Source: Patescibacteria group bacterium
GTDB lineage: Bacteria > Patescibacteriota > Microgenomatia > UBA8517
Assembly: GCA_025999275.1 (NCBI GenBank)
Contig: AP024680.1
Coordinates: 419,578 to 483,577 of the forward strand
Direction of reading: 5' to 3'
DNA length: 64,000 nucleotides
A program made the position numbers and the translations under genes. The notes under the pieces are model-generated. The model was not told where the DNA came from, searched no databases, and was given only the letters and a program-made list of their open reading frames with translations. Positions 1,008 to 47,163 of this stretch are shown piece by piece. How positions within the stretch are numbered: position 1 is the first letter of the stretch; each line of letters opens with the position of its first letter.

Positions 1008-2660
1008 ATGAAGATTAAATTAAATTATGAGAGCTTTTTAATAATTTTGTTTTTATTTTTCTCTTCTTTAATTACTCTAAAAAATATATTTCACCCAGGT
1101 ATTTATACGGCTCATGATATTTGGCATAACCTAGCTCGTCTAAATTATTATTTTCAATTTTTGAAAGATGGGCAGGTACCTCCTTATTTTGGTTCTAATC
1201 TCGCTTATGGTTTTGGTTATCCTTTATTTTTGTTTTCCTATCATTTGCCTTGGATTTTTGGGTCTTTTTTGATGTGGCTTGGTTTTGGTGATGTTAACAC
1301 GATTAAGTTTTTGTTTTTGTTTAGTTTTTTTCTTTCTTGCGTTTCGATGTATTATTTGGCTTTTGAGATATCGAAGAATAAATTTATTTCTTTAGTTTCT
1401 TCAATCTTGTATCTATGGGCTCCTTATAGGTTTTTTATTATCTATGTTTCAGCTGCTGTTGGCATATCTTTTACTTTTATTTTTGTGCCTCTTTTGTTTT
1501 TAGGATTAATTAAGATTTATAAGTCAGAATTTACAAAAGGATTAATTTGGATGACTGTAGGTTTAACTGGTTTAATATTGTCTCATTTTCCAACGTTGGT
1601 GGTTTTTTTGCCTTTGTTTTTACTTTTGTCTGTTTATTTCTTTTTTATGTCTTCCAAAAAAGGGCTTTTTATCAAGTTTTTATTTCTTTCTTTTGTTCTT
1701 TCTTTAGGCATATCTTCTTTTTATTTTATTCCGGCGTTTTATTATAAGGGTCTTGTTTTGGGTTTACCATCCGTTTTTCATATGGGTTTTGTAACCTTGA
1801 GACAATTAATTTATTCCAAGTGGGGCTTTGGAATTATTGTTAATTCGGCTTCAGAAAACCCGTTTTCTTTTCAGATTGGAATATCTCAGTGGTTAATATT
1901 TTTGGTTAGTTTTTTGTTTGTTTTTTTAAACAGGGGCAAATCTAAGAATTTTCCTTTAATTTTAATTTTGATTTTCATTTTTTGTTTTAATGTTTTTCTT
2001 TCAACGTCTTTATCAAAAGCTCTGTGGAGTTCTTTTATCTCAAAAACTGGTCTTGATTTTCCTTTTCGGTTTATTTATCCCAACGTCTTTATCTCAAGTC
2101 TTTTGTTTGTTTATTTAATTAGAGAGATAAAAAATGATTTTATTTACTATTTTTTCTCATTTTTGCTTTTATTTATCGCGTTTTATACCAACCGTAACCA
2201 TATTCGTCCGAATATGTTTTTATCTGAAAATGAGTTTCGTCAGTTTGTTAATTCTGAGGTAACGACCAGTACTTATGGCGAATATTTTCCCTCTTTTGTT
2301 GATTTGTCTTTGGCAAATTACAATTTTAGGGAGATGATTATGAAACAAAACAATCTTTCTTTGGTTTATGAAAACAGCACAAAAAGTGTTTATAAAGTGT
2401 CTTTAGATAATGATGGGGAGGTCGTGTTGCCAAAATATGCTTACTCCTTTATTTCTTTGTATATAAATGGCGTCCCTCATGGCTTTATGATGGGGGAGGG
2501 TGGTTTGATAACATTATCTGTTAATAGAGGTTTGCAGGAGATAGAGGTTGTTTTTAACAAGAGTTTTATAATGAAGTTATCTTTTTATATAACAGTTCTT
2601 AGCTTGTTTGTTTTTTTATTAATTCTTTGGAAGAATATAAAAAGAAATTATGAAATATAG
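1008..2660 (+). CDS. polytopic membrane protein with extracytoplasmic C-terminal domain and terminal TM helix (YfhO-like architecture)
   Basis: approximately 12 TM helices then soluble stretch '...VVLPKYAYSFISLYINGVPHG...' then final TM helix; same topology as the YfhO at 12686-14974. Confidence 0.4.
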   Translation: MKIKLNYESFLIILFLFFSSLITLKNIFHPGIYTAHDIWHNLARLNYYFQFLKDGQVPPYFGSNLAYGFGYPLFLFSYHLPWIFGSFLMWLGFGDVNTIKFLFLFSFFLSCVSMYYLAFEISKNKFISLVSSILYLWAPYRFFIIYVSAAVGISFTFIFVPLLFLGLIKIYKSEFTKGLIWMTVGLTGLILSHFPTLVVFLPLFLLLSVYFFFMSSKKGLFIKFLFLSFVLSLGISSFYFIPAFYYKGLVLGLPSVFHMGFVTLRQLIYSKWGFGIIVNSASENPFSFQIGISQWLIFLVSFLFVFLNRGKSKNFPLILILIFIFCFNVFLSTSLSKALWSSFISKTGLDFPFRFIYPNVFISSLLFVYLIREIKNDFIYYFFSFLLLFIAFYTNRNHIRPNMFLSENEFRQFVNSEVTTSTYGEYFPSFVDLSLANYNFREMIMKQNNLSLVYENSTKSVYKVSLDNDGEVVLPKYAYSFISLYINGVPHGFMMGEGGLITLSVNRGLQEIEVVFNKSFIMKLSFYITVLSLFVFLLILWKNIKRNYEI

Positions 2661-4290
2661 AATAACTCTTATTTTAATTATTATAATTTCCTTTTTTCTA
2701 AGATTTTATAAAGTCACAGAGGTTCCTCCTTCTTTAAATTGGGATGAGGTTTCAATAGGTTATAATGCCTATTCTATTCTAAAGACTGGCAAAGATGAGT
2801 GGAATGAGTTCCTACCCTTACATTTCAAGTCCTATGGAGAGTATAAACTTCCTGCTCAAATTTATTTTTCTATTCCAGCAATTGCCATTTTTGGTCTGAA
2901 TGATTTTTCTGTGAGAATTACACCTGTAGTTTATGGGACATTAACCATTATTTTTCTCTATTTTCTTGCTCTGGAGGTATCAAAATCAAAGGCCATAGCC
3001 CTAATTAGTTCGTTCTTTTTGGCTGTTTCTCCTTGGCATATTCAACTGACTCGTGCTTCTTTTGAATCGTCTTTTGCATTGATGTGGGTTATTTTGGGTA
3101 TGATTTATTTAGTTAAAGGATTTAAAAAAAGAAAATTTTTTATTTTTTCAGCTTTGTTTTTTGCCCTTTCAATGTATACCTACAACTCTGCTCGTGGTTT
3201 TGTTCCTATCTTTATCTTAACTCTAATTCCCTTTTATCTTAGAGATTTTTTGAGGGAAAAGAGAGCAAGTCTTTTTTCAGGTTTTTTGTTTTTGATATTA
3301 ATTTTACCGATTTTTAATTTCTTGTTATTTGGGGAAGGAGAGGCTCGTTATAAATTGGTCAGTGTTACTGATGAAGCAGGGCTTATTCCAAGAATTGAGG
3401 AGAAAAGAAATTTTTCTAATCTACCCCCATTTTTAAAAAGACTTTTTTATAACAGGTACACTTTTATAAGTTATTATATTGCCAGGAATTATTTAGCCCA
3501 TTTTACACCGGATTTTCTTTTTATTAATGGAGCTGGACACAAACAACACCATCCTCAGGGTATAGGGCAGTTGTATTGGATTCAGGCACCATTCTTGCTT
3601 TTGGGATTTTACCTTTTGTTTAAGAATAAAAACAAATATAGATGGATTTTAATTTTATGGCTTTTAACCGCTTTTATACCAGTTTCACTAACCCGCGATA
3701 GCATACCTCATGCTTTGAGAACTTTAAACGCCGCTCCGGTTTATCAAATAGTAACTGCTATAGGTATTTACTATTCTTTTTTTTATTTGTTTAAAAAAGA
3801 TCTTACTACTTACTACTTTCTACTTGCTACTATTGTTTTTGTTTTTCTTTACCAATTTATCAAATATCAGATTTATTTTTATAAACAGTATCCAGTTTTA
3901 TATTCTCGGGATTGGCAGTATGGTAATAAGGAGGCAGTTTATTTTATTAAAGAGCACTATCATGATTATGATTTAATTGTTTTTACTCGTGAGTATGGGG
4001 AGCCTCATATGTTTACATTGTTTTATCTAAATTATCCGCCTGAAAAGTTTCAAAATGATAAAAACTTGGTTCGTTTTGAGACTTTTGATTGGGTTAGGGT
4101 TTTGAGATTTGATAAGTTTTATTTTCCTGATCTTGGAGATGAAGGAACAAAGGTTGAGTATATAAGAAAAGAATTTCCAAATAAGAAGATCTTATTTATA
4201 GCAACTCCTAGTGAGACCCCTTCTGGCCAGGAGATTTTATATAGTATTGATTTCCTTAATGGCAGTCGTGCTTTTAATATTTTCGAATGA
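2650..4290 (+). CDS. GT-C fold membrane glycosyltransferase, PMT/ArnT (GT39/GT83, PMT_2)-like, paralog 1 of tandem array
   Basis: N-terminal 'RFYKVTEVPPSLNWDEVSIGYNAYSILKTGKDEWNEFLPLHF' acidic DE loop motif typical of PMT/ArnT GT-C enzymes; approx 10 TM helices; C-terminal soluble domain with 'WQYG' motif; 11-nt overlap with upstream gene. Confidence 0.75.
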   Translation: MKYRITLILIIIISFFLRFYKVTEVPPSLNWDEVSIGYNAYSILKTGKDEWNEFLPLHFKSYGEYKLPAQIYFSIPAIAIFGLNDFSVRITPVVYGTLTIIFLYFLALEVSKSKAIALISSFFLAVSPWHIQLTRASFESSFALMWVILGMIYLVKGFKKRKFFIFSALFFALSMYTYNSARGFVPIFILTLIPFYLRDFLREKRASLFSGFLFLILILPIFNFLLFGEGEARYKLVSVTDEAGLIPRIEEKRNFSNLPPFLKRLFYNRYTFISYYIARNYLAHFTPDFLFINGAGHKQHHPQGIGQLYWIQAPFLLLGFYLLFKNKNKYRWILILWLLTAFIPVSLTRDSIPHALRTLNAAPVYQIVTAIGIYYSFFYLFKKDLTTYYFLLATIVFVFLYQFIKYQIYFYKQYPVLYSRDWQYGNKEAVYFIKEHYHDYDLIVFTREYGEPHMFTLFYLNYPPEKFQNDKNLVRFETFDWVRVLRFDKFYFPDLGDEGTKVEYIRKEFPNKKILFIATPSETPSGQEILYSIDFLNGSRAFNIFE

Positions 4291-18747: not shown

Positions 18748-19833
18748 ATGTTCAAAAAGGTAGACTTTTTTGTTTTATCTTTTCTTCTTTTTTCATTTTT
18801 TGTCATTCTCTTTTTTAGAAAACCTGATATCTTTCATTATCGTTTTAATGAGAGGTTAATCTCTGATTATTTGCGAAGCCAAGATATAGAGGATAAAGAA
18901 AGAAAAATAAAGGACAGAATATTTTTGTCAGATGCTGATATTTATCTTGCTTCTGGCGTTCTTTATGCCATGGGAGAGGATCCAACAAAATTTAATTTCC
19001 AACATCCTCCTTTGGTTAAATATCTTTTTGGTTTTTCTAATCTATATTTTGGCAATCCTTACTATGTGCAAGTATTTTTTTCATCCTTAATTATTATTTT
19101 GACTTATATCTTGGGTCTAAAAATTTTTAAAAGCAGAAAAGTTGCTTTTTTATCATCTTTAATGTTAACTTTTGATCCGATTTTACTTTCAACCACTTCA
19201 CAAACTCTTCTTGATAACACAAATACAGCTTTTTCTTTGTTATTTGTTTTATTGTTTCTTTTATTTCCTAACAACTTTATTCTTAACGGCATTGTCTTGG
19301 GTCTTCTTTTTGCCTCCAAGTTTTGGAGTACTAGTTTGATTTTGGTCATTTTTGTTTTTGCTTATCATTATTTTGTTTTAAAGAAGAAGATTAAACCAAG
19401 GTCTATTTTTTTAACTTTTTTGATTGCTGTTTTCGTTTTTTGTCTTTTTTATCTGAAGACTTTTGTCAATCATGGTGGAAAATTTAATATTTTATTTTTT
19501 GAAATTAAGAATTTAAAATTTATGCTTTCTCACAATAGCTCGCCTGTTCTTGGCAATTCCTTGATTCTTTTTTTGACTGGTCATTTTGTTGATTGGTGGG
19601 GAAGCGGGAAGTGGCTTTCTGCTGATGTTTGGAGTTTTCTTTGGCCAGTTTCTTTTTTGTTTGTTTTGCTGAATCTTAAAAAAGGTTTAAAGGAAAAAGA
19701 GAAGGGCTTGTTTTTTCTTTATCCCTTTGTCTTCTTTTTAACCAGTCTTTTTAACACCGCCTTTACCCGTTATTTTCTTCTAATTTTGCCTTTTTTCTAC
19801 CTCTCTTTTTCTTATTTATTAATAAAAAAATAA
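18748..19833 (+). CDS. GT-C fold membrane glycosyltransferase, PMT-like (short form)
   Basis: 'EDPTKFNFQHPPLVKYLFGFS' resembles the conserved HPPLgK loop of PMT/PMT_2 proteins; polytopic. Confidence 0.55.
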   Translation: MFKKVDFFVLSFLLFSFFVILFFRKPDIFHYRFNERLISDYLRSQDIEDKERKIKDRIFLSDADIYLASGVLYAMGEDPTKFNFQHPPLVKYLFGFSNLYFGNPYYVQVFFSSLIIILTYILGLKIFKSRKVAFLSSLMLTFDPILLSTTSQTLLDNTNTAFSLLFVLLFLLFPNNFILNGIVLGLLFASKFWSTSLILVIFVFAYHYFVLKKKIKPRSIFLTFLIAVFVFCLFYLKTFVNHGGKFNILFFEIKNLKFMLSHNSSPVLGNSLILFLTGHFVDWWGSGKWLSADVWSFLWPVSFLFVLLNLKKGLKEKEKGLFFLYPFVFFLTSLFNTAFTRYFLLILPFFYLSFSYLLIKK

Positions 19834-19852
19834 TGGTCAATGGTCAATGGTT
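19831..19852. repeat. heptamer tandem array TAATGGT-CAATGGT-CAATGGT
   Basis: same YAATGGT heptamer arrays recur at 44451-44486 (direct) and 44877-44910 (inverted). Confidence 0.7.
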
Positions 19853-19920
19853 GAGGGTTAATATTCGTCAGCTCCTTTTCCACTTCTATATTTTACTTGC
19901 TACTGTCTCTTGTCTCTGCT

Positions 19921-19998
19921 TTTCTACCCTCTTCTACCCTTCCACTCTTCTATTCTTCCGCTCTCTTCTACTCTTCCACTCTTCTACTCTTCCACTCT
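19921..19998. repeat. G-poor C/T-rich tandem repeat, about 4.5 copies of a 16-18 nt unit (CTCTTCTACTCTTCCACT)
   Basis: 19929-19946, 19947-19962, 19963-19980, 19981-19996 degenerate copies; top strand has a single G in about 90 nt. Confidence 0.75.
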
Positions 19999-20042
19999 TA
20001 TTTATCATTGACTGCTTTTGGCGGTTTTGTTTTAATTAGATT

Positions 20043-20366
20043 ATGCAGAAGGAAAATCATCAAGAATTTATAACTAAAGACTTTCTCCAAGAGTCTCTTC
20101 AAGATTTTGCTGATACAATTCTTGCGGGTATGTATGATATGTATAACAAGTTAGACAGAAGACTAATGAACGTCGAGGAAAGGTTAATGAATGTTGAAGG
20201 AAGATTAACAAACGTTGAGGAAAGGTTAACTTCGGTTGAGTGGCAGGTTGATTCTTTGAACAGAAAGTTTGAAGCCCAGCAAGTTAGGTTGGATAGGCAT
20301 GATAGTCGGATTTCCAAGCTTGAGAAAATTCACCCCAATGGCAAACATTCTTTGCCTGCCTATTAG
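20043..20366 (+). CDS. small coiled-coil protein with four in-frame 21-nt (heptad) tandem repeats
   Basis: 'RLMNVEE RLMNVEG RLTNVEE RLTSVEW' encoded by 20159-20242 (4 x 21 nt). Confidence 0.5.
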   Translation: MQKENHQEFITKDFLQESLQDFADTILAGMYDMYNKLDRRLMNVEERLMNVEGRLTNVEERLTSVEWQVDSLNRKFEAQQVRLDRHDSRISKLEKIHPNGKHSLPAY

Positions 20367-20469
20367 CATTTGTTTTAATTAAGGGTGGCTTTTATAGCGC
20401 CCTACTTTCTACCCATCTAGCCTCTTCTTTCTGACATGGTTATTATCTAGAATTTATTCTCTTACCCCT

Positions 20470-20510
20470 TACCCATACCCCATAATTCTTAAATCTTAAA
20501 TCCACAACCT
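20470..20510. repeat. direct repeat copy A (TACCCCATAATTCTTAAATCTTAAATC)
   Basis: shares 'CCCCATAATT...ATCTTAAATC' with copies at 21626-21668 and 22049-22102. Confidence 0.6.
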
Positions 20511-21531
20511 AAAATTTATTATCTACAGCATTTCTTTGGATTATTATTTCTTTAAATGCTTGGATAAATGATATTGCTGTTATGAAGAATCTTCCGTTTT
20601 CAAGCAAAATTGGCTTTAATGTTAGGTAGTAGTAATTTTCTTTCTGATATTTTTGCCCATAGAATTGGTTATGGAGATTCGCGTAAAGCTTGCTTGGTTT
20701 TTTGGCATTGTTTTTATAAATAAAATATTCAAATAATCCATTTACAATAAGATCTTTTGTTTTAAACCACAGATAAGCCCAGAATTCTTCTTCTGGTGCA
20801 ATTTTCCTTGCAAGCTCTAAAGCAAATCTGTGAGCGTATTTTTCTTTTTGATAGTTGGTTAGCAAGAGATGATTTTTGTTTTCTTTTATCATTTCCATTT
20901 CTTGTCGTGCATGTCCTAACTCGTGTATGAAAGTGAATATAGAGGGTATTGTTTTATATTTTAGACTGCATCTTATTTCAAATATTTTTTTGTTCTTGTT
21001 GTAAAGGCAGGAGGCTTCTTCATCTTTTATTATTTTTATTTTTTTGATTATTTCTTTTGCTAAAGGGTCTGATTCTTGCCAAATTTTATATACTTCTTCC
21101 AATTGGTATTCCTTTTGAGATTTGTGTTTAGGGAAAGTTAAGTAGTGTTCCGACCAGTATTCTTTTGGCAATCCCTTTTTGAATCTTACTTTTTGATTTA
21201 TGAATGATGTAATTTTTTGGGAGTCTTTGACCAAATTTTCAAGATTTTTCTGAGGGATTTTGTTGTTTTTTGCTAATTCATCGATGAAGTTTTTATATCC
21301 TTTATGTACTGAGGATTTTTTTAGGAAGTCTGTAAATTTACAGAAATATTTTTCTGCCTCTTTTAAGTCTTTTTTGTAAGCCTCAAACCTTTTTAATTTC
21401 TGTTTGTAGCTGATTTTTGCGACTAATATCTTTCTTATCTTATTTGCTTTTTCTTCTGGTATTAAGTTTCTTATTTTTTGAAGTTCAATTGCAGCATCAA
21501 AGAGAGCGGCTTTATAGTATATGTTTATCAT
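20509..21531 (-). CDS. hypothetical protein with HExxH zincin-type motif (putative metallopeptidase)
   Basis: 'FTFIHELGHARQEME'; Lys-rich N-terminal half; no other recognisable family. Confidence 0.4.
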   Translation of the reverse strand: MINIYYKAALFDAAIELQKIRNLIPEEKANKIRKILVAKISYKQKLKRFEAYKKDLKEAEKYFCKFTDFLKKSSVHKGYKNFIDELAKNNKIPQKNLENLVKDSQKITSFINQKVRFKKGLPKEYWSEHYLTFPKHKSQKEYQLEEVYKIWQESDPLAKEIIKKIKIIKDEEASCLYNKNKKIFEIRCSLKYKTIPSIFTFIHELGHARQEMEMIKENKNHLLLTNYQKEKYAHRFALELARKIAPEEEFWAYLWFKTKDLIVNGLFEYFIYKNNAKKPSKLYANLHNQFYGQKYQKENYYYLTLKPILLENGRFFITAISFIQAFKEIIIQRNAVDNKF

Positions 21532-21625
21532 TTTTAAATTTGATTGATTTTATCAAATATTTTATTTTTTTCTTTCATTTAATTGCAGATTGATTGACGG
21601 TTTTATTTTGAGTGTGTTTTCTTTT

Positions 21626-21668
21626 TCCCAATAATTCATAATTCATAAATCTTAAATCATAAATCATA
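21626..21668. repeat. direct repeat copy B (CCCAATAATTCATAATTCATAAATCTTAAATCATAAATCAT)
   Basis: see copy A. Confidence 0.6.
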
Positions 21669-22048
21669 TTTATCTATTTAGGATTTATTTTGCTCTTATA
21701 TTATTCCAGCACTTCACTTTTAAGAAGCATTGCTTGTTTTATCCAGAAGTCTTGCCAAATTTCTTCAAGAAGACTCTTTTGTGTTGGTGTGAGTATGGTT
21801 TTTACCATAACCAAGAGGAAAGAACTTTCTTTCTTTTTGGGTCAATATCAAGCTTATCCCAATATTTTCTCAATAGTTTTTCTTTTATTTTTTTACCTCT
21901 GAGGCCAAAGTTTATTTGCTGCTCTAGTTTCCAGATTATATATTTTTCTTTGTCTTTTTTTAATTTTTTGGTATCTACACTCCAGTTATACATAGTTAAT
22001 TATGTCATTTTAGCTTTCCTTTTTCTTTATAGAATTATAGTCAAAATT

Positions 22049-22102
22049 ATTCTCTTAATCCTTACCCCGTACCCCATAATTAATAATTCATAGATCTTAA
22101 AT
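22049..22102. repeat. direct repeat copy C (CCTTACCCCGTACCCCATAATTAATAATTCATAGATCTTAAATCAT)
   Basis: see copy A; followed by (ATTTTGCAT/ATTTTGAAT) x4 and a TGTATAAT -10-like box before GT2 start 22190. Confidence 0.6.
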
Positions 22103-22189
22103 CATTTTTCCAATTTTTGACTTTTGAATTGTAATTTTGCATTTTGCATTTTGAATTTTGAATTATTATTTTGCTGTATAATATTCCCA

Positions 22190-22960
22190 ATGGCGCGCTA
22201 CCCTAAAATTTCAATTGTTGTTCCTTCTTTTAACAAAGTAGATTTTATTAAAGACACTTTGCGATCAATTGTTTCTCAAAAATATCCCAATTTAGAGGTG
22301 ATAATTCAAGATGGGGGATCAACAGATGGAACTTTAGAGGTAGTTAAAAAATATCAGAAGAAATACCCCAAGGTTTTTAAAGTTGAAAGTAAAAAAGATA
22401 AAGGCCAGCTTGATGCAATAAACAAAGGGCTAAAGAAGGCAACAGGGGAAATATTAAGTTTTATCAACGCGGATGATTTTTATGAAGATAAGGCTTTTTA
22501 TAAGGTGGCAGATTTTTATCTTAAAAATAAAGATGCTTTATGGTTTGCCGGAAAGGGGAGAGTGGTTAATAGAGAAGGGAAAGAAATTGCCAAAATCGCC
22601 ACACTTTATAAAAATTTTCTTTTGAACCTTTCTAATATTCAATTTCTACTTGTTACCAATTATCTTTTTCAGCCTTCAGTTTTTATAACTCGCAAAGCCT
22701 ACAATAAATACGGCCCTTTTACAGGCACTAAAACTGCGGTTATGGAATACGATTTATGGCTTAAACTTTTTTCAGTTTCAAAGCCAGTGGTTATTCCTTA
22801 CTATCTTTCCTCGTTTCGCCTTTACAAAGGTTCAATTTCAACTTCAAAATTCAAAGATATGATGAAAGAAGATGAAAAAATAGCCAAAAAATATACATCT
22901 GATCCTTTGGTTTTACTTCTTCATAAAATGCACAACTTAGCAAAATTTTTCTGGGCATAA
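22190..22960 (+). CDS. glycosyltransferase family 2
   Basis: 'KISIVVPSFNKVDFIKDTLRSI...EVIIQDGGSTDGT...FINADDF'; start at internal ATG 22190 of track ORF 22124. Confidence 0.85.
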   Translation: MARYPKISIVVPSFNKVDFIKDTLRSIVSQKYPNLEVIIQDGGSTDGTLEVVKKYQKKYPKVFKVESKKDKGQLDAINKGLKKATGEILSFINADDFYEDKAFYKVADFYLKNKDALWFAGKGRVVNREGKEIAKIATLYKNFLLNLSNIQFLLVTNYLFQPSVFITRKAYNKYGPFTGTKTAVMEYDLWLKLFSVSKPVVIPYYLSSFRLYKGSISTSKFKDMMKEDEKIAKKYTSDPLVLLLHKMHNLAKFFWA

Positions 22961-35828: not shown

Positions 35829-37394
35829 ATGTTTAATTTATCCTATCTTACTTTTTCTGATGCGGCGAAGTTTGCTGATTTGGCAAGGAATTTTGTTTTA
35901 GGAAGAGGGTGGGGTTCTTCTTTTTCTTTCTTTTCTCCCTCTATTTTCCAACAGTTGGAAAAAACTCTTTTTGATATGGGTATTTTTCCTTTGACTCCTT
36001 TTTTTATTTCTTTATCTTTTAGAATTTTTGGAATCTCTGATTTTGCAGTAATTGCCACTTCATTTTTCTTTTATGTTTTATCTTTGGTTTTTACATTTTT
36101 ACTTTCAAGAAAGATTTTTAAAAGCAGTTTAATTGGTTTTCTTTCTTTGCTGGTTGTTGGTTTTAATCTTAATCTTATTGATTATGCAACAAGCGGGGCG
36201 TCGGAGGCTTTGTTTATCGCTGAGATATTGCTTCTTTTTTATCTTCTTTCTTTCAAGAAGAAAGTTTTTGATTTATTTTCTTTACTGGTTATTGTACTGA
36301 TGTATTTTACTCGAGCTCATGCATTTATTTTTATAGCAGGCGCTTTACTTTTTTGGCTTCTTTTACGATTTGATGTTAAAAAATCTCTTTTTTATTTTTC
36401 TTTCATTTTGATTTTGGGTCTTTTATTTGATCGTTTTGTTCTTTCCTCTTTATCTGGCAAGTTTTTCATTTATTCAATTTTGGGAGGGGGGAAGTATGCA
36501 GTTTTACAACACAATTCTTCATGGGCGGTTTCTGACACCTTGCGAGGTCTTCCTCGCCAGTCTTTTGATTTGATTTCTGTTTTAAAGAAAGTTTTTTACA
36601 ATCTTTACAACTTCTATAAATTGATGCCACAGATTATGAATCCTTATTTATTTGCTCTTTTTCTCATTGGTCTTTTTGCTTGGGGTAAAGATAGGCTGCA
36701 AAATTCATTTAAGATTGCCTCATTGTTTATGGTGTTTTTAACTTTTTTGGTTGCTGCCGCTTCTATTCCGTTTTTCCGCTATATTCATCCAGTTGTTCCA
36801 CTAGTTTATATCTTGGCAGTAGGAACACTTGTAGAGATAATTTCTAAATTAGAAATTCTAAATTCTAAACTAAAGATATCAAAACAAAAATTAGTTATTT
36901 TTTCTTCCTTATTTCTTATTCTGTTTTTTGGGGTTGGGCAGAGCGTTGGCGTTCTTCTTCTTGATAGACGTTTTGAAAGGAGAGTTTATAATTTTGATAA
37001 GCCCCCAGTTTATGTTTTGCTTTCAAAAATTATTAAGGAAAATACAGATCCTAACGAGGTTATTTTGACTAATCTTGATACTTGGGGCAGTTGGTATGGG
37101 GAAAGGAGAACTGTTTGGTTTCCATTAACACCGAAGCAGATAATTAATCCTGAAAATGGAAAAATTCCTTTTGACGCTATTTATCTTACAAGCTACAAAA
37201 TGGACGACCCAAATTATTATATGGGAAATGAGTGGAGACTTATTTTTGAAAACCCCCAAAGTCCTGAAAAATGGAATTGTGAAGGGTGTGATCAGATTGC
37301 AAAGGAATTTACCCTAAAGGGTGTTTATAAAGTTATTCCTGACGATGATTATGAAAGACAAGGTGAAATTAGTATTATTTTAGTTAAGAATTAA
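35829..37394 (+). CDS. GT-C fold membrane glycosyltransferase, ArnT/PMT_2-like
   Basis: 'FSDAAKFADLARNFVLGRGWG' resembles ArnT-type acidic/Arg motif; polytopic with C-terminal soluble domain. Confidence 0.55.
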   Translation: MFNLSYLTFSDAAKFADLARNFVLGRGWGSSFSFFSPSIFQQLEKTLFDMGIFPLTPFFISLSFRIFGISDFAVIATSFFFYVLSLVFTFLLSRKIFKSSLIGFLSLLVVGFNLNLIDYATSGASEALFIAEILLLFYLLSFKKKVFDLFSLLVIVLMYFTRAHAFIFIAGALLFWLLLRFDVKKSLFYFSFILILGLLFDRFVLSSLSGKFFIYSILGGGKYAVLQHNSSWAVSDTLRGLPRQSFDLISVLKKVFYNLYNFYKLMPQIMNPYLFALFLIGLFAWGKDRLQNSFKIASLFMVFLTFLVAAASIPFFRYIHPVVPLVYILAVGTLVEIISKLEILNSKLKISKQKLVIFSSLFLILFFGVGQSVGVLLLDRRFERRVYNFDKPPVYVLLSKIIKENTDPNEVILTNLDTWGSWYGERRTVWFPLTPKQIINPENGKIPFDAIYLTSYKMDDPNYYMGNEWRLIFENPQSPEKWNCEGCDQIAKEFTLKGVYKVIPDDDYERQGEISIILVKN

Positions 37395-42526: not shown

Positions 42527-43120
42527 GTGAAAAGATTTCTTTTTGTTGATGGAACCAATCTTTACGCGGGGCAGTTTTCCCTATTTGGCCCAGATAAGTA
42601 TCTTGTATTTTCTGATTTTTTAAGATTTATCGAGGATGCTATAGGTAAAAAATTTGATAAGATATTTTTTTATGCTTCTTATTCTCCTAGAAGTAAAAAG
42701 CTTACCGAGAAAGAAAAGATTTATCTTAAAAATGAATACTTTTTTTATAAAAGTGCCAAATTAACCCCAAAATTATCTTTTTTCCGTGGATATCGTTCTA
42801 GAAAAAGTGGAAAAGAAAAAGGGGTTGATGTTAAACTTGCGTGTGATTTAGTCTCTTTATCTATTACTGGAAAGTATCAAGAAGGTTTTATTTTAAGCGG
42901 AGATGCTGATTTTTTGGAGGCTCTCTTTATATCAAAGAAGTATTCTAAAGGAATTAGGCAAAATATAATTTGCTTGGAAAATAAAATAATGTATCGAGGT
43001 TCTTATTTTTTTCCAACTTATGTAATCAGATTTACCGGAAAGAATTTAAAAATTAAAGAGAAGTATTACAAATTTATTTATTTGGATCAGAAATTTTTGG
43101 TTAGGGATCTTAATAATTAG
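42527..43120 (+). CDS. NYN-domain (LabA-like) protein
   Basis: GTG start; 'KRFLFVDGTNLYAGQF...' matches N-terminus of NYN/LabA domain proteins. Confidence 0.55.
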   Translation: MKRFLFVDGTNLYAGQFSLFGPDKYLVFSDFLRFIEDAIGKKFDKIFFYASYSPRSKKLTEKEKIYLKNEYFFYKSAKLTPKLSFFRGYRSRKSGKEKGVDVKLACDLVSLSITGKYQEGFILSGDADFLEALFISKKYSKGIRQNIICLENKIMYRGSYFFPTYVIRFTGKNLKIKEKYYKFIYLDQKFLVRDLNN

Positions 43121-43124
43121 AAAT

Positions 43125-43161
43125 CCCGACATACAAGTATGTCGGGAAGGTTGTTTTTATT
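43125..43161 (+). terminator. intrinsic terminator
   Basis: perfect 9-bp stem CCCGACATA/TATGTCGGG with CAAG loop, followed by GTTGTTTTTATT. Confidence 0.7.
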
Positions 43162-43169
43162 AAAACATA

Positions 43170-44438
43170 ATGGAAGAAAAAAAGCAAGTCTTAAAATCAA
43201 TGATTTTTTCTTCGACTGCCAAGGATACTTATATTCTTTTTTTTAGCAATGTTGCTACCGCTTTTCTGGGTTTTGTTTTTACTTGGTTTGTTGCGAGAGC
43301 TCTAAGTGTTTCTGATTTTGGTGTTTTCTCTTCGGTCAACAATCTTGCTTTAATGCTTTCTCCATTAGTTGATCTTGGCGTGAGCTCAGCTTTAATCAAT
43401 TTCATTGCCTATTTTCAGGCAAGAAATGAATACAAAAAGACTTTTGAGTATGTTAAGGCAGGACTTGTTATTCGATTTGTTATTTTGCTTTTAGTTTCAA
43501 TCTTTCTTTTTGCTTTTAGGGGCTTTGTTTCAGATAAGCTTTTGGCTGGTGGAGGTGTTTATTTAGTTTATTGGACAATAATTATTCTTCTTGGTCTTGT
43601 TTTCTCAAGTTTTGTTACTTCTGTTCTTCAGGCTTATAAGAAATTTTTTAGGTCGATGATTTCTGAAGTTTCTTATTCTTTTGGCAGAGTGATTTTTGTT
43701 CTTATTTTTGCTTTTAATGGTTTGACTTTAACAGGCTCTTTAAGCGCTTTTGCTTTGGCAGGTTTAGTTTCTTTGGTGATTACTGTTTTTGTTTTGGGTT
43801 ATGGCTTTTTGAAATCGCATCCACCAAAAAGTATTTATCTTGATTTGCTTAGATTTTCCGGGTGGCTTGGGGTAAATAGGATTTTGTCTTCTATTTCAGG
43901 TAGGGCTGATGTTCAAATGCTTGCAGCTCTTTCTGGGGCTGTTGCTGTTGGTTATTATTCCATCGCTGGAAGACTCGCTTTTTTTATTGCTGTTTTGTCT
44001 TCAAGTTTATCGGCAGTTATTGCTCCCCGTCTTGCCTCTTTTGGCAATAAAGAGAGAGAAAGGGCGTATATTTTAAAATCTCTTTTGGCAATAGTTGGGG
44101 TTAGTTTTGGAATAATTTTATGGGTAATTTTTGCCAAACCTTTTATACTTCTACTTTTTGGAGAAAAGTATCTTAATTCTGTTGGTATCTTTCAGGCCTT
44201 GGCCTTGGCTATGATCCCATTTTTGTTTACCTCTCCTTCTGTTTCAGCGATTATTTATGCAATGAAAAAGCCAAAAATTATTGGCGTTTTTTCTATTTTT
44301 CAGACAGCTGCAATTTTAATTTTGAATTATCTTTTGATTCCCAAATTTGGCGCTTATGGACCAACTATAACACTGGCGGTTACAAATACTGTTCTAATGG
44401 CGTATAGCTGGGTGGTGGTGGTTAGATACTATAGATAA
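43170..44438 (+). CDS. Wzx-like oligosaccharide flippase (MOP superfamily, Polysacc_synt)
   Basis: 422 aa, about 12-14 TM helices, N-terminal region typical of polysaccharide biosynthesis/flippase proteins. Confidence 0.65.
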   Translation: MEEKKQVLKSMIFSSTAKDTYILFFSNVATAFLGFVFTWFVARALSVSDFGVFSSVNNLALMLSPLVDLGVSSALINFIAYFQARNEYKKTFEYVKAGLVIRFVILLLVSIFLFAFRGFVSDKLLAGGGVYLVYWTIIILLGLVFSSFVTSVLQAYKKFFRSMISEVSYSFGRVIFVLIFAFNGLTLTGSLSAFALAGLVSLVITVFVLGYGFLKSHPPKSIYLDLLRFSGWLGVNRILSSISGRADVQMLAALSGAVAVGYYSIAGRLAFFIAVLSSSLSAVIAPRLASFGNKERERAYILKSLLAIVGVSFGIILWVIFAKPFILLLFGEKYLNSVGIFQALALAMIPFLFTSPSVSAIIYAMKKPKIIGVFSIFQTAAILILNYLLIPKFGAYGPTITLAVTNTVLMAYSWVVVVRYYR

Positions 44439-44450
44439 GATAAAAGCTGA

Positions 44451-44486
44451 TAATGGTTAATGATTGATGACTAATGGTTAATGATT
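44451..44486. repeat. heptamer array: two direct copies of TAATGGTTAATGAT; second copy contains the start codon of the 4HB gene
   Basis: perfectly complementary to 44877-44890. Confidence 0.75.
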
Positions 44487-44870
44487 AAGAAAAAGAATAA
44501 TCTTTATAGGACTGTTGAAGACGTGCCTGTGTGGCAATTGTCGCATCAGCTAACTCTTAGAGTTTATAAATTAACAGAGGCCTTTCCTAGGGCTGAGGTA
44601 TATGGTCTAACCTCTCAGATTAGGAGGTCTGCCAGTTCTGTGTCAGCGAATATATCTGAGGGTTTCTATAGGAATAGCACAAAAGAGTTGATAAATTTTC
44701 TATATAACGCGAGAGGGTCGTTGGGAGAAACGCTTTATCACATAAGGCTTGCAAGAGATTTGGGTTTATTAAATTCTTCTGATTTTGAAAGTCTTAAAAA
44801 TGGCTATAATTTACTTGGTAGACAATTGAATGGATGGATTAGGAGTCTTAAATTGAAAATTAATGGTTGA
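44481..44870 (+). CDS. four helix bundle protein (TIGR02436 / 23S rRNA intervening-sequence protein family)
   Basis: 'VYKLTEAFPRAEVYGLTSQIRRSASSVSANISEG'. Confidence 0.85.
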   Translation: MIKKKNNLYRTVEDVPVWQLSHQLTLRVYKLTEAFPRAEVYGLTSQIRRSASSVSANISEGFYRNSTKELINFLYNARGSLGETLYHIRLARDLGLLNSSDFESLKNGYNLLGRQLNGWIRSLKLKING

Positions 44871-44876
44871 TAAGTA

Positions 44877-44910
44877 AAGATCATTAACCATTAACCATTG
44901 ACCATTGACT
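44877..44910. repeat. inverted heptamer array (ATCATTAACCATTAACCATTGACCATTGACTATT)
   Basis: reverse complement of the upstream array and of 19831-19852. Confidence 0.75.
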
Positions 44911-44917
44911 ATTATTT

Positions 44918-45763
44918 ATGTCTAATTCTATCTTTGCTCATACCCTAGTAAGAAATGAGGAGCGGTATTTGTGGTTTGCTATTTCTTCAGTCGTTGATTA
45001 TGTTGATAGGGTTTTTCTTTGGGATACTGGAAGCACGGATAAAAGCCTTGAGATAGAAAAGGAAATAAAAAAGAAGTGGCCTGGGAAAATTGACTTAAGA
45101 CAAATTGGGGAAGTTGATGCAAATGAGTTTACCAGTGTCAGGCAAAAAATGCTTGATCAATCAGATTGTGATTGGGTAATGATTTTGGATGGTGATGAAG
45201 TTTGGTGGAAAGATTCAATAAAAAGAGCGATTGATCTTATAAATGAGAAGGGAAACGAGTTGGATTCTTTGGTTCACAGATACTACAACTTAGTGGGGGA
45301 TATATTTCATTATCAGGAAGAGAAAGCGGGACGTTATGTTATTGACGGCAAGCAGGGAAATTTAACTGTTAGGTTTTTTAGGCGAAATATTCCTGGTATT
45401 CATTTTGACAATCCTCATGGGACTCAGGGTTTGTTTGATAAAGATGGAGTTTTAATTCAGGAAAGAGATCCAAAAAGGAGGTTCCATTTGGATGATTATT
45501 ATCTCCACTTTACCCATCTTGTTCGCTCAACTAGCCTTATCGAAGACAAAAAAGTGATTAAGAGAAATTTAAAGTACAAATATGAGCTAGGTATTCCTTT
45601 TCCTTTAGATTTTTATTATCCAGAAGCGTTTTTTAAAGATAGGCCAGATATTGTTGAAAGTCCTTGGAGAGTAATGGATGCTTCGTTTAGGATTAGATCA
45701 TTTTTTGAAACTCCATTAAGGAAGATAAAAAGGAGGATTTGGTGGGGGAAGACTGGTTATTAG
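44918..45763 (+). CDS. putative GT-A-like glycosyltransferase (GT2/GT92-like), low confidence
   Basis: 'HTLVRNEERYLWFAISSV...FLWDTGSTDKS...VMILDGDEVWW'. Confidence 0.4.
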   Translation: MSNSIFAHTLVRNEERYLWFAISSVVDYVDRVFLWDTGSTDKSLEIEKEIKKKWPGKIDLRQIGEVDANEFTSVRQKMLDQSDCDWVMILDGDEVWWKDSIKRAIDLINEKGNELDSLVHRYYNLVGDIFHYQEEKAGRYVIDGKQGNLTVRFFRRNIPGIHFDNPHGTQGLFDKDGVLIQERDPKRRFHLDDYYLHFTHLVRSTSLIEDKKVIKRNLKYKYELGIPFPLDFYYPEAFFKDRPDIVESPWRVMDASFRIRSFFETPLRKIKRRIWWGKTGY

Positions 45764-45792
45764 ATTGTAGGCAAGAGTTTCAAGTTATAAAA

Positions 45793-47163
45793 ATGTTAGA
45801 AAAATCAGAATATACAAAAATAAATAAACGAGATGGCATTTTACTTATTGGCATTTTAGCCTTTCAGTTGTTTTTTCTTTTTAATCTTAAATTTACAGCT
45901 TGGCCGGAAATGTTAGCATGGCCTTATTTGATGATTAAGGGCTGGATGCCATATAGGGATATTGCCATAGCTCATAACCCATTATTGCTTGTTGACTTGG
46001 CAATCTTTTATAAATTTTTTGGGGTAGGCGTTTGGCAGTTAAAATTTTTTACTTGGCTCTTGATTATCTTGTCTGAGATGGTCTTGTTTTTAATTGCAAA
46101 GGAAATTTGGGGCAGGAAAGTTGCGTTGTGGTCGGTCTTGTTTTACAGCTTTTGGGTTATCTTTTATGAAGGTAATGGAATTTGGTTTGATTTTTATATG
46201 GGCATTTTGGCCTTTATTTCTTTTTACCTTGTTTATAAGAAGGATTGGTTTCTGGCGGGTGTTTTTTGGTCTTTGGCTTTTTTGTCAAAGCAAACGGCTA
46301 TTTGGTTCTTGTTCCCAATCCTGTTTGAGATTATTGTGCGACCACCTTTAAAGATTGAATCTTTAAAGATGGTTTTTGGGGCAGGTGCTGTCTTGAGTAT
46401 ATTTTTGTTTTTGCTTTGGAAATTGGGTATTTTGTTTTATTGGTGGAATTGGGCGGTTAATTTTGGGGTTTTTGTTCTTCCAAAATCAACAGGCCAAATA
46501 AAATTGCCAGGTTTTTCAGAGCTTTTTGTTTCTCTTTTTCCATTTTTTGTGTTTTTACTTTTATTCCTAAATCATAAATCTAAATTGTTAAATCTATTTC
46601 TTTGGTCTTTGGCTGGTATTCTTGGTGCCTATCCGCGTTTTGAATATTTTCATTTTCAGCCTGCAATTTTTTATCTTTCGATTGCCGCAGCTCTTGTTTT
46701 TTCGGATTTTAAAAAGATAAGTAAGATTGGGCAGATGTTTTTGATATTTTTTGTTTTGGGCAATACATTTTTGTTTGCAAGATTTTTGGAAAGGAATTTT
46801 AACAAAGAAACTAGATTTTATGAATCTGATTTTAGAAAGGTAATTGATTATGTTAGGGAAGAAACTAAACCTGGTGATTATATTTTTGTTTTGAATTGGT
46901 GGGATAGTCTTTATGCTTTAACTGAGACTATACCAGCAACAAAGCCATTAGTTCCTCAACTTGCCTGGTATCAAGAGTTTGATAAGATTCAGAAAAAAGA
47001 AGTAGAAGACATTGCTTCTATAAGGCCAAAACTTGTAGTTCTTAATTCTTATACGGATAGCGGCCTTTCTTCTTATATTCCCAAAGAGCTTTATAATTAT
47101 ATTGATAAAAACTACATTATGGTAGACGAAATTGGGGATGTAAAAATATTAAATCTAAGATAA
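45793..47163 (+). CDS. polytopic membrane protein, GT-C-like (DUF2029/GT87-like)
   Basis: 'WPEMLAWPYLMIKGWMPYRDIAIAHNPLLL'; start at internal ATG 45793. Confidence 0.45.
   Translation: MLEKSEYTKINKRDGILLIGILAFQLFFLFNLKFTAWPEMLAWPYLMIKGWMPYRDIAIAHNPLLLVDLAIFYKFFGVGVWQLKFFTWLLIILSEMVLFLIAKEIWGRKVALWSVLFYSFWVIFYEGNGIWFDFYMGILAFISFYLVYKKDWFLAGVFWSLAFLSKQTAIWFLFPILFEIIVRPPLKIESLKMVFGAGAVLSIFLFLLWKLGILFYWWNWAVNFGVFVLPKSTGQIKLPGFSELFVSLFPFFVFLLLFLNHKSKLLNLFLWSLAGILGAYPRFEYFHFQPAIFYLSIAAALVFSDFKKISKIGQMFLIFFVLGNTFLFARFLERNFNKETRFYESDFRKVIDYVREETKPGDYIFVLNWWDSLYALTETIPATKPLVPQLAWYQEFDKIQKKEVEDIASIRPKLVVLNSYTDSGLSSYIPKELYNYIDKNYIMVDEIGDVKILNLR

Follow-up and report, generated by a model that had tools for sequence, protein, structure and literature searches.

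The window considered here, which is the whole 64-kb stretch of DNA that was analyzed (31% G+C), contains a gene of the family named for its occurrence in intervening sequences (IVSs) of 23S rRNA, although the gene does not lie in rRNA. It sits between two protein-coding genes of a glycosylation operon and has complementary sequences on either side, an arrangement that an earlier note on this DNA had likened to a ribosomal IVS outside of rRNA. The locus therefore raises the questions of whether the complementary flanks are genuine, whether they are a general attribute of the gene family, and whether they act as RNA, as DNA, or as sites that are read by a binding factor.

A four-helix-bundle gene enclosed by inverted heptamer arrays

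The gene (44481–44870, plus strand) codes for a 129-residue four-helix-bundle (4HB, or S23p) protein of the PF05635/TIGR02436 '23S rRNA-intervening sequence protein' family. It matches PF05635 with an E value of 9.6e-37 (125.9 bits, cutoff 33.8) and TIGR02436 'four helix bundle protein' with 124.2 bits (cutoff 24), and an identical protein (P0001) is on record from a Patescibacteria contig. Residues 6–124 are homologous to PDB 2GSC (E 7e-20), the XCC0516 pentamer, and the PDB homologues 2GSC and 2RLD comprise five chains each; XCC0516 is cited as a homopentamer in PMC4990558. A single search of PF05635/TIGR02436 yields thousands of members in many phyla, and this is thus a very large family without a known function that takes its name from a few rRNA intervening sequences. 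A PADLOC scan gives no defence-system match for the 4HB protein, and the IMG/VR viral contigs contain only 13 of its relatives, which gives no obvious role to phages as its vehicle.

The 4HB gene is bracketed by two arrays of heptamers in opposite orientations. The upstream arm (44450–44485, plus strand; inverted repeat I1) is a period-7 tandem repeat of five TAATGRT-type units (TAATGGT, TAATGAT, TGATGAC, TAATGGT, TAATGAT), the final unit of which includes the ATG start codon at 44481–44483, and there are stop codons in all three frames within it. The downstream arm (44880–44915, plus strand) consists of five reverse-complement heptamers (ATCATTA, ACCATTA, ACCATTG, ACCATTG, ACTATTA), beginning 9 nt past the 4HB stop codon and finishing 2 nt ahead of the following gene's start codon. 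The earlier note had described 14-nt arms, a view that has to be replaced: the arms are two arrays of five heptamers, each 36 nt long, with 81% complementarity. Its report of two direct copies of TAATGGTTAATGAT upstream, with the second spanning the ATG, is correct to the nucleotide (44451–44464 and 44472–44485), and the exact reverse complement downstream, ATCATTAACCATTA, is also present as claimed, but at 44880–44893 and not at 44877–44890, a slip of 3 nt. No other exact copy of this 14-mer is found on either strand of the whole 64-kb window, all three being at the 4HB locus. We refer to the architecture in which inverted period-7 arrays abut the start and stop codons of a PF05635 gene, as they do here, as a heptamer-armed 4HB cassette, a term defined in the present analysis.

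Several results show that the arms are real and far above chance expectation. The observed inverted-repeat score is matched by none of 100 shuffles of the flanks (z = 6.7). Paired in the sense RNA, the arms give 29 Watson-Crick pairs, four G.U and three A.C, and the duplex energy is −47.1 kcal/mol for the sense RNA and −34.0 kcal/mol for the antisense RNA; when the downstream arm is shuffled as a control, the duplex falls to −23.6 ± 5.0 kcal/mol. The earlier note had supposed that a long-range stem brackets the ORF and covers its start codon, and this is what the minimum free energy (MFE) fold of RNA 44440–44920 contains, in the form of a 35 bp closing stem (44449–44486 with 44879–44916; z = −3.7). 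A stem of about 35 bp is thus predicted in the sense transcript that would close the cassette, bury the 4HB start codon, and reach up to where the downstream gene starts. Ribosomal IVSs are characterized by terminal inverted repeats around the element that form a long stem in the transcript, and arms of this kind (36 nt) with a predicted 35-bp stem are found here. A position inside a 23S (or 16S) rRNA gene, which is likewise characteristic of IVSs, is absent.

The cassette lies within a glycosylation operon

The earlier note had taken the neighboring genes for a flippase and a glycosyltransferase, and Pfam matches identify them as such. Upstream is a polysaccharide flippase gene (Polysacc_synt/MurJ-like; 43170–44438, plus strand), with its stop codon 11 nt ahead of the upstream arm, and downstream is a family-2 glycosyltransferase gene (GT2; 44918–45763, plus strand), whose named relatives are from Woesebacteria. 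All three genes share one strand and are separated by 42 and 47 nt. A promoter and terminator scan from the flippase to GT2 returned a single weak promoter-like match (44905–44934) that overlaps the downstream arm, with counts no greater than in shuffled sequences. Since the gaps are occupied by the arms, without a convincing promoter or terminator, the arms are themselves the intergenic spacers. The terminator-like hairpin nearest to the cassette (43124–43147, a perfect 10 bp) is located 5′ of the flippase gene; it is preceded by an NYN-domain gene (42527–43120), and an NYN gene is also present 5′ of the flippase at one of the orthologous loci (L084). An Rfam scan of the window matched no family, rRNA included.

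Inverted arms are a general feature of the gene family

Homologue loci were sampled from species-representative genomes (80 loci) and from metagenomes (80 loci), and for every gene in the sampled loci the 90 nt on its upstream side were compared with the 90 nt on its downstream side and the best inverted repeat was scored. There are several common features. First, the inverted-arm architecture encloses most family members across many phyla. The earlier note had let its reading depend on whether other copies of the gene carry complementary flanks, and the majority do: at a strict score of at least 12, arms are present at 41 of 74 4HB genes in the genome loci (55%) and at 40 of 63 in the metagenome loci (63%), as compared to 7 of 362 (~2%) and 7 of 194 (~4%) of the other genes, respectively. 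With a lenient score of at least 15 and the loci combined, the values are 67% of 136 4HB genes and 2.6% of 571 other genes. Depending on the threshold, arm frequency ranges from 55 to 78% for 4HB genes and from 2 to 6% for others, and in each of the two independent data sets arms are enriched 20- to 30-fold relative to neighboring genes. Second, the period is 7 in about 80% of the arrays with a detectable period, and the median arm is 30 nt long, or about 4.3 units, such that the unit number is not fixed at five. Third, the arms are placed close to the ORF, with median distances of 0 nt between the stop codon and the beginning of the downstream arm and of 11 nt between the end of the upstream arm and the start codon. 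Fourth, the unit sequences vary by lineage and include AGGAGTC, AGAATTC, GTGAATG, TAGTAAC, GGGAATC, TAATGRT and others. Finally, 4HB genes are typically embedded in operons: the upstream neighbor is co-oriented with the 4HB gene in 101 of 112 cases, both neighbors are co-oriented for 72% of 4HB genes as compared to 51% of controls, and the gaps are about 40 nt. The notion in the earlier note that this family is typically encoded within 23S rRNA is not supported, as none of the 40 loci tested is in rRNA and most of the genes lie co-directionally between protein genes.

The Xanthomonas XCC0516 orthologue, for example, sits between accB and accC (L188, 2486–2935; L189, 2430–2875). Its upstream array is GGGAATC GGGAGTG GAGAATC GGGAATC, and the downstream array is the unit-by-unit reverse complement of this and ends at the accC start codon; the two arms agree unit by unit except at the seventh position of each unit.

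A few genes other than 4HB genes are also bracketed by inverted heptamer arrays, which we count against the RNA-stem reading discussed below. Judged by eye, these include a response-regulator receiver protein gene (L092, 2386–2829) with arms CTCAACC.../...GGTTGAG and a score of 32, genes for a TruA-like protein at two loci (L061, 1154–1897; L150, 654–1397), and a gene for a small membrane protein (L034, 1176–1586) that has one arm in common with the adjacent 4HB gene. At two additional loci a small gene adjoins the 4HB cassette, and by eye one is of the GxxExxY/PD-(D/E)XK type (L112, 255–659) and the other is of a DUF559, endonuclease-like type (L050, 582–956). These are other small multi-copy families that perhaps occupy the same niches as 4HB cassettes.

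Cassettes differ between close relatives at a single slot

At four orthologous loci (L081–L084), where the 4HB proteins have ~70% identity to that in the window, the flippase-4HB-GT2 order is kept along with arms of the same heptamer family, which here extend over the flippase stop codon and into the opening codons of GT2. The same cassette type is found in a different glycosylation context at L085. The GT2 start codon falls within the downstream arm at L081, L084, L166 and L167. The cassette is syntenic and old within its own clade, keeping its position over about 30% protein divergence, and is thus not a recent transposition.

The same slot is nonetheless variable. The GT2 protein at L166 is 95% identical to that in the window, and BLASTN aligns window positions 44154–44386 and 44921–45810 to this locus at 91.4% and 93.4% identity, respectively. 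The intervening 534 nt (44387–44920, plus strand), which contain the last ~17 flippase codons and the ORF with both of its arms, have no nucleotide match, and in their place L166 has a type-B 4HB paralogue with 42% amino acid identity and with arms GATTTAT... upstream and ...TAAATC downstream. Type B is also present in this slot in the complete Woesebacteria genome CP058602.1 (L167), and a third type, type C, with 26% identity and arms CAAAAGT/TTTTGAG, occupies it at L169–171, in further Woesebacteria-like genomes. At L172–174, where GT2 is 62% identical, there is no 4HB gene at GT2 and a PMT_2 gene directly precedes it. The arm sequence and the protein type (A, B or C) change together at this one slot, and it is the arm, ORF and arm as a unit that vary between close relatives. 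All eight of the cassettes that were folded (types A, B and C, and that of Xanthomonas) have between 26 and 38 long-range closing pairs in the MFE structure. The slot is thus a hypervariable one in cell-envelope loci of the CPR, where close relatives have one or another of three unrelated cassette types.

The left breakpoint of the replacement relative to L166 lies within the flippase gene, about 60 nt outside of the arm, and divergence decays into both flanks, a pattern better accounted for by homologous recombination in the flanks than by a precise transposition. As regards features of MITEs or other elements with terminal inverted repeats (TIRs), there is one copy in the 64 kb examined and the left breakpoint is displaced from the arm by these ~60 nt. 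The mobile module suggested in the earlier note therefore holds up in one respect and not in another: the cassette is exchangeable, as a relative with 91–93% identity carries a different paralogue with different arms, but its synteny within the clade speaks against recent transposition. A subfamily with CAGGAGT/CAGAATT arms and 70–79% amino acid identity is found in many phyla, in line with whole cassettes spreading horizontally.

Other heptamer arrays in the window

The earlier note had counted it against its reading if heptamer arrays elsewhere should prove to be mostly unpaired, and this is partly the case: the other arrays in the window are mostly unpaired or direct, and we count this against the involvement of an RNA stem. 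There is no second 4HB gene or pseudogene beside these orphan arrays, and only one 4HB gene in the window. One array (19831–19851) has the sequence TAATGGT CAATGGT CAATGGT, followed by TGAGGGT TAATATT, and matches the upstream arm of the cassette in both unit family and orientation; its beginning coincides with the stop codon of the ORF at 18748–19833, and no reverse-complement partner was found for it in the window. Three direct composite blocks (20454–20505, 21617–21668 and 22055–22105) begin with TTACCCC... and continue with TAATTCT/TAAATCT units, and the TAAATC part resembles the type-B downstream arm of L166 and L167. Neither a 4HB gene nor a pseudogene lies beside the composite blocks between 20454 and 22105.

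A further array (22108–22170; TTTTGAC TTTTGAA TTGTAAT TTTGCAT...) is located just 5′ of another GT2 gene, recognized by a Pfam match over 22184–22957. The array has 80% identity to the type-C downstream arm of L169, with which it has even the irregular unit TTGTAAT in common, and over 19 nt it shows 89% complementarity to 21630–21648. Together the two enclose about 500 nt with a minus-strand ORF of 63 amino acids (21802–21993) that has no family match. The region from 21630 to 22170 may be a second cassette with other cargo, or the remnant of one. These arrays lie in or next to an island of unannotatable genes (19833–22120) between two glycosylation genes, which also contains a noncoding 8/16-nt tandem repeat, CTCTTCTACTCTTCCA (19929–19999), an ORF for a 107-residue coiled-coil protein (20043–20366) with three 21-nt repeats at 20164–20229, and a minus-strand ORF of 340 amino acids (20509–21531) with only a weak capP-like PADLOC match. 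Heptamer arrays are also present within long ORFs, at 3802–3831 (CTTACTA, four copies; ORF 2650–4290) and at 36838–36869 (TAAATTC, 4.6 copies; ORF 35829–37394), so that spacers are not the only places in this genome where period-7 repeats occur.

Possible roles of the arms

What do the arms do? On balance, it seems somewhat probable that this is an IVS-type cassette residing in an mRNA operon, whose arms form an RNA stem that would be a substrate for RNase III, a translational gate, or both. The 4HB gene has no predicted promoter and would be expressed by read-through transcription from the host operon, and pairing of the arms within the RNA would then yield the long stem. This could be recognized by a double-strand-specific RNase (RNase III, by analogy with the Coxiella IVS) or could gate translation, since it would bury the start codon of the 4HB gene and abut that of the downstream gene, or include it, as in the orthologues. 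Through cleavage or gating, the cassette would be cut out or silenced, and its insertion would stay tolerable for the host operon. Spread and replacement of cassettes would proceed by recombination, which between close relatives is apparently homologous recombination in the flanking genes.

The evidence that bears on RNA as opposed to DNA is mixed. Among 71 strong loci the sense duplex is the more stable in 43 and the antisense duplex in 25 (Wilcoxon p = 0.012), and in the window the sense duplex is favored by 13 kcal/mol. This sense-strand bias is a modest hint of a role at the RNA level. In ungapped arm alignments, G.U and A.C oppositions are equally frequent (48 and 49, respectively), and a tolerance for wobble pairs is thus not evident in these alignments. 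As tandem units may pair in more than one register, alignment columns of the arms are not reliably homologous.

The equal numbers of G.U and A.C are in keeping with a role at the DNA level, in which a non-autonomous mobile cassette would have the arms as its terminal inverted repeats or as its sites of recombination and any RNA pairing would be incidental; the mover would be an enzyme encoded elsewhere, or possibly the 4HB protein would help. We regard this as unlikely, although there are several observations in its favor, including the replacement of a complete arm-ORF-arm block between relatives whose flanks are 91–93% identical, the occupation of one slot by three unrelated cassette types, the distribution of the CAGGAGT/CAGAATT-armed subfamily in many phyla at 70–79% amino acid identity, and the orphan type-B and type-C arms elsewhere in the window. 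However, there is no transposase or recombinase nearby, neither multiple identical copies nor a target-site duplication is seen (the window having one 4HB gene), and the breakpoint ~60 nt outside of the left arm with its decaying divergence is the pattern of homologous recombination. Furthermore, synteny is kept over ~30% protein divergence, and neither the strong co-orientation with neighboring genes nor the sense-duplex bias is expected of a pure DNA signal.

A second alternative is that the 7-nt units are read by a factor, perhaps the 4HB pentamer itself, which would then autoregulate through its own mRNA or DNA, and that complementarity simply results from placing the same motif in both orientations. 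Arm mismatches at 61 cassette loci plus the window are phased with a period of 7 (chi-square 84, p 6e-16), with rates of 5–10% at positions 1, 2 and 4 of the consensus unit and 15–29% at positions 3, 5, 6 and 7, and units from different phyla share a loose consensus, AGNAKTN (3.98 bits, as compared to 2.76 ± 0.10 for shuffled units). Phased mismatches and a shared consensus speak for a constraint that bears on the sequence of the unit as such, for example by a binding factor, beyond simple pairing. Together with the co-variation of arm sequence and protein type (A, B and C) at one slot, they suggest a unit-reading factor, which might be the 4HB protein itself; the homologues 2GSC and 2RLD are ring-shaped pentamers, and arrays of the same unit types also exist without partners. 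Avd, which is related to 4HB, works with nucleic acids in diversity-generating retroelements (DGRs). Nonetheless, as the explanation for the arms we consider this quite doubtful, because the unit number is not fixed at five (the median arm having ~4.3 units), and because unit reading alone leaves the near-constant inversion and the symmetric placement at both ends of the ORF unexplained. It is compatible with the formation of an RNA stem, and both may coexist.

The remaining two explanations fare poorly. The window is AT-rich (31% G+C) with many short tandem repeats, and heptamer simple sequence repeats (SSRs) are known to be over-represented in bacteria (PMC4692102), so the arms could in principle be low-complexity spacer or slippage-prone microsatellites with no gene-linked function. 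This coincidence is highly improbable and is already contradicted by the shuffle and enrichment controls (no shuffle in 100 reaches the score, and arms are 20- to 30-fold enriched at 4HB genes in both of the independent data sets); in addition, the exact 14-mer is restricted to this locus and the arms are conserved in orthologues with 70% identity. Lastly, the gene has weakly scoring matches to the bAvd and DivGenRetAVD models, which could suggest that it encodes the Avd accessory protein of a DGR, but this can be dismissed, as the scores are below the curated cutoffs (30.7 vs 40, and 30.2 vs 80 for NF033474) and the genes within ~3 kb of it encode an NYN-domain protein, the flippase, GT2 and PMT_2, with no adjacent reverse transcriptase or pair of template and variable repeats (TR/VR).

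Implications

The locus in the window is one member of a widespread architecture. This extends the IVS concept beyond rRNA, to the essential accB-accC pair of Xanthomonas and to a glycosylation operon of the CPR, and it gives the over-represented tandem heptamers of bacteria a concrete gene partner. We raise the broader proposal, tentatively and as something that may well prove too general, that S23p/TIGR02436 genes with inverted arrays constitute one widespread and unrecognized class of promoter-less selfish cassettes in rRNA and operons, of which the rRNA IVSs would be the minority; that the heptamer excess of bacteria (STRR, GGGAATC, TAACTGA) would largely be the footprint of these cassettes and of orphan arms; and that the pentamer would recognize its own arrays. 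Such recognition would explain the joint change of arm sequence and protein type. Both puzzles, that of the protein family and that of the heptamers, become testable in a culturable organism with Xanthomonas XCC0516, for which the structure has been solved.

Comparison with known systems

Similarity of the 4HB protein to Avd of DGRs (PF22296, NF033474) is below threshold, but the two have a related four-helix-bundle fold and a pentameric ring; unlike Avd, the 4HB gene in the window has no adjacent reverse transcriptase, template or variable repeat. The cassettes also resemble MITEs, TIR elements and the gene cassettes of integrons, in that a short promoter-less block between inverted repeats is exchanged whole inside host transcription units. 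They differ from these in having no adjacent transposase or integrase and no target-site duplication that could be seen, and in that the arms are heptamer arrays of variable unit rather than a fixed terminus or a single attC.

The closest parallels are with the ribosomal IVSs. S23p-encoding 23S IVSs are described in Coxiella burnetii, Leptospira and Brucella (PMC4990558). The C. burnetii IVS is located in helix 45 and has heptamer repeats 5′ of the S23p ATG and a 28-bp terminal stem; RNase III has been shown experimentally to cut at the first heptamer repeat, and the heptamer copy number differs among strains (PMC4990558). The likeness to a ribosomal IVS drawn in the earlier note is well founded as to geometry, as inverted arms enclose an ORF of the S23p family in both. 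The cassette in the window shares with rRNA IVSs the protein family, the position of the ORF within terminal inverted repeats, and a long stem, which here is a predicted one; as in Coxiella, the 5′ arm of tandem heptamers ends at the start codon. Ribosomal IVSs lack a promoter of their own and are transcribed by the host unit, as is presumably also true of the window cassette. Unlike the rRNA IVSs, however, it is located in a glycosylation operon, and excision by RNase III without religation, shown for Coxiella and other rRNA IVSs (PMC4990558), is for this cassette only surmised. Its 4HB protein is conserved, at ~70% identity in orthologues; the ORF of the Coxiella IVS, by contrast, is in decay.

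The arms also have counterparts among heptamer repeats that have been described as stand-alone elements. Rehm et al. report about 186 GGGAATC arrays in Xanthomonas, 70–75 of them forming convergent (inverted) pairs (PMC4692102), and a second study describes TAACTGA arrays in Beggiatoaceae, cyanobacteria and Bacteroidetes (PMC4679880); the heptanucleotide elements of Geobacter and the STRR heptamers of cyanobacteria are further examples. The published repeats are like the arms in being tandem, usually with about four units, in short spacers between co-oriented genes. The passages searched of PMC4692102 and PMC4679880 make no mention of the 4HB gene family and treat the heptamer repeats as G-quadruplexes or translational signals, whereas in the present case they bound a gene cassette at either end. 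In our literature search, only the Coxiella IVS paper (PMC4990558) links this family to heptamer repeats. A general association of the family with inverted heptamers is stated in no paper of the literature searched, which is not proof that it is unpublished, and the generality of the architecture, the tie to heptamers, and the swapping of cassettes at one slot are likewise not in that literature. The two lines of description nonetheless meet in Xanthomonas, where the flanks of the XCC0516 cassette are exactly the published GGGAATC repeats (PMC4692102).
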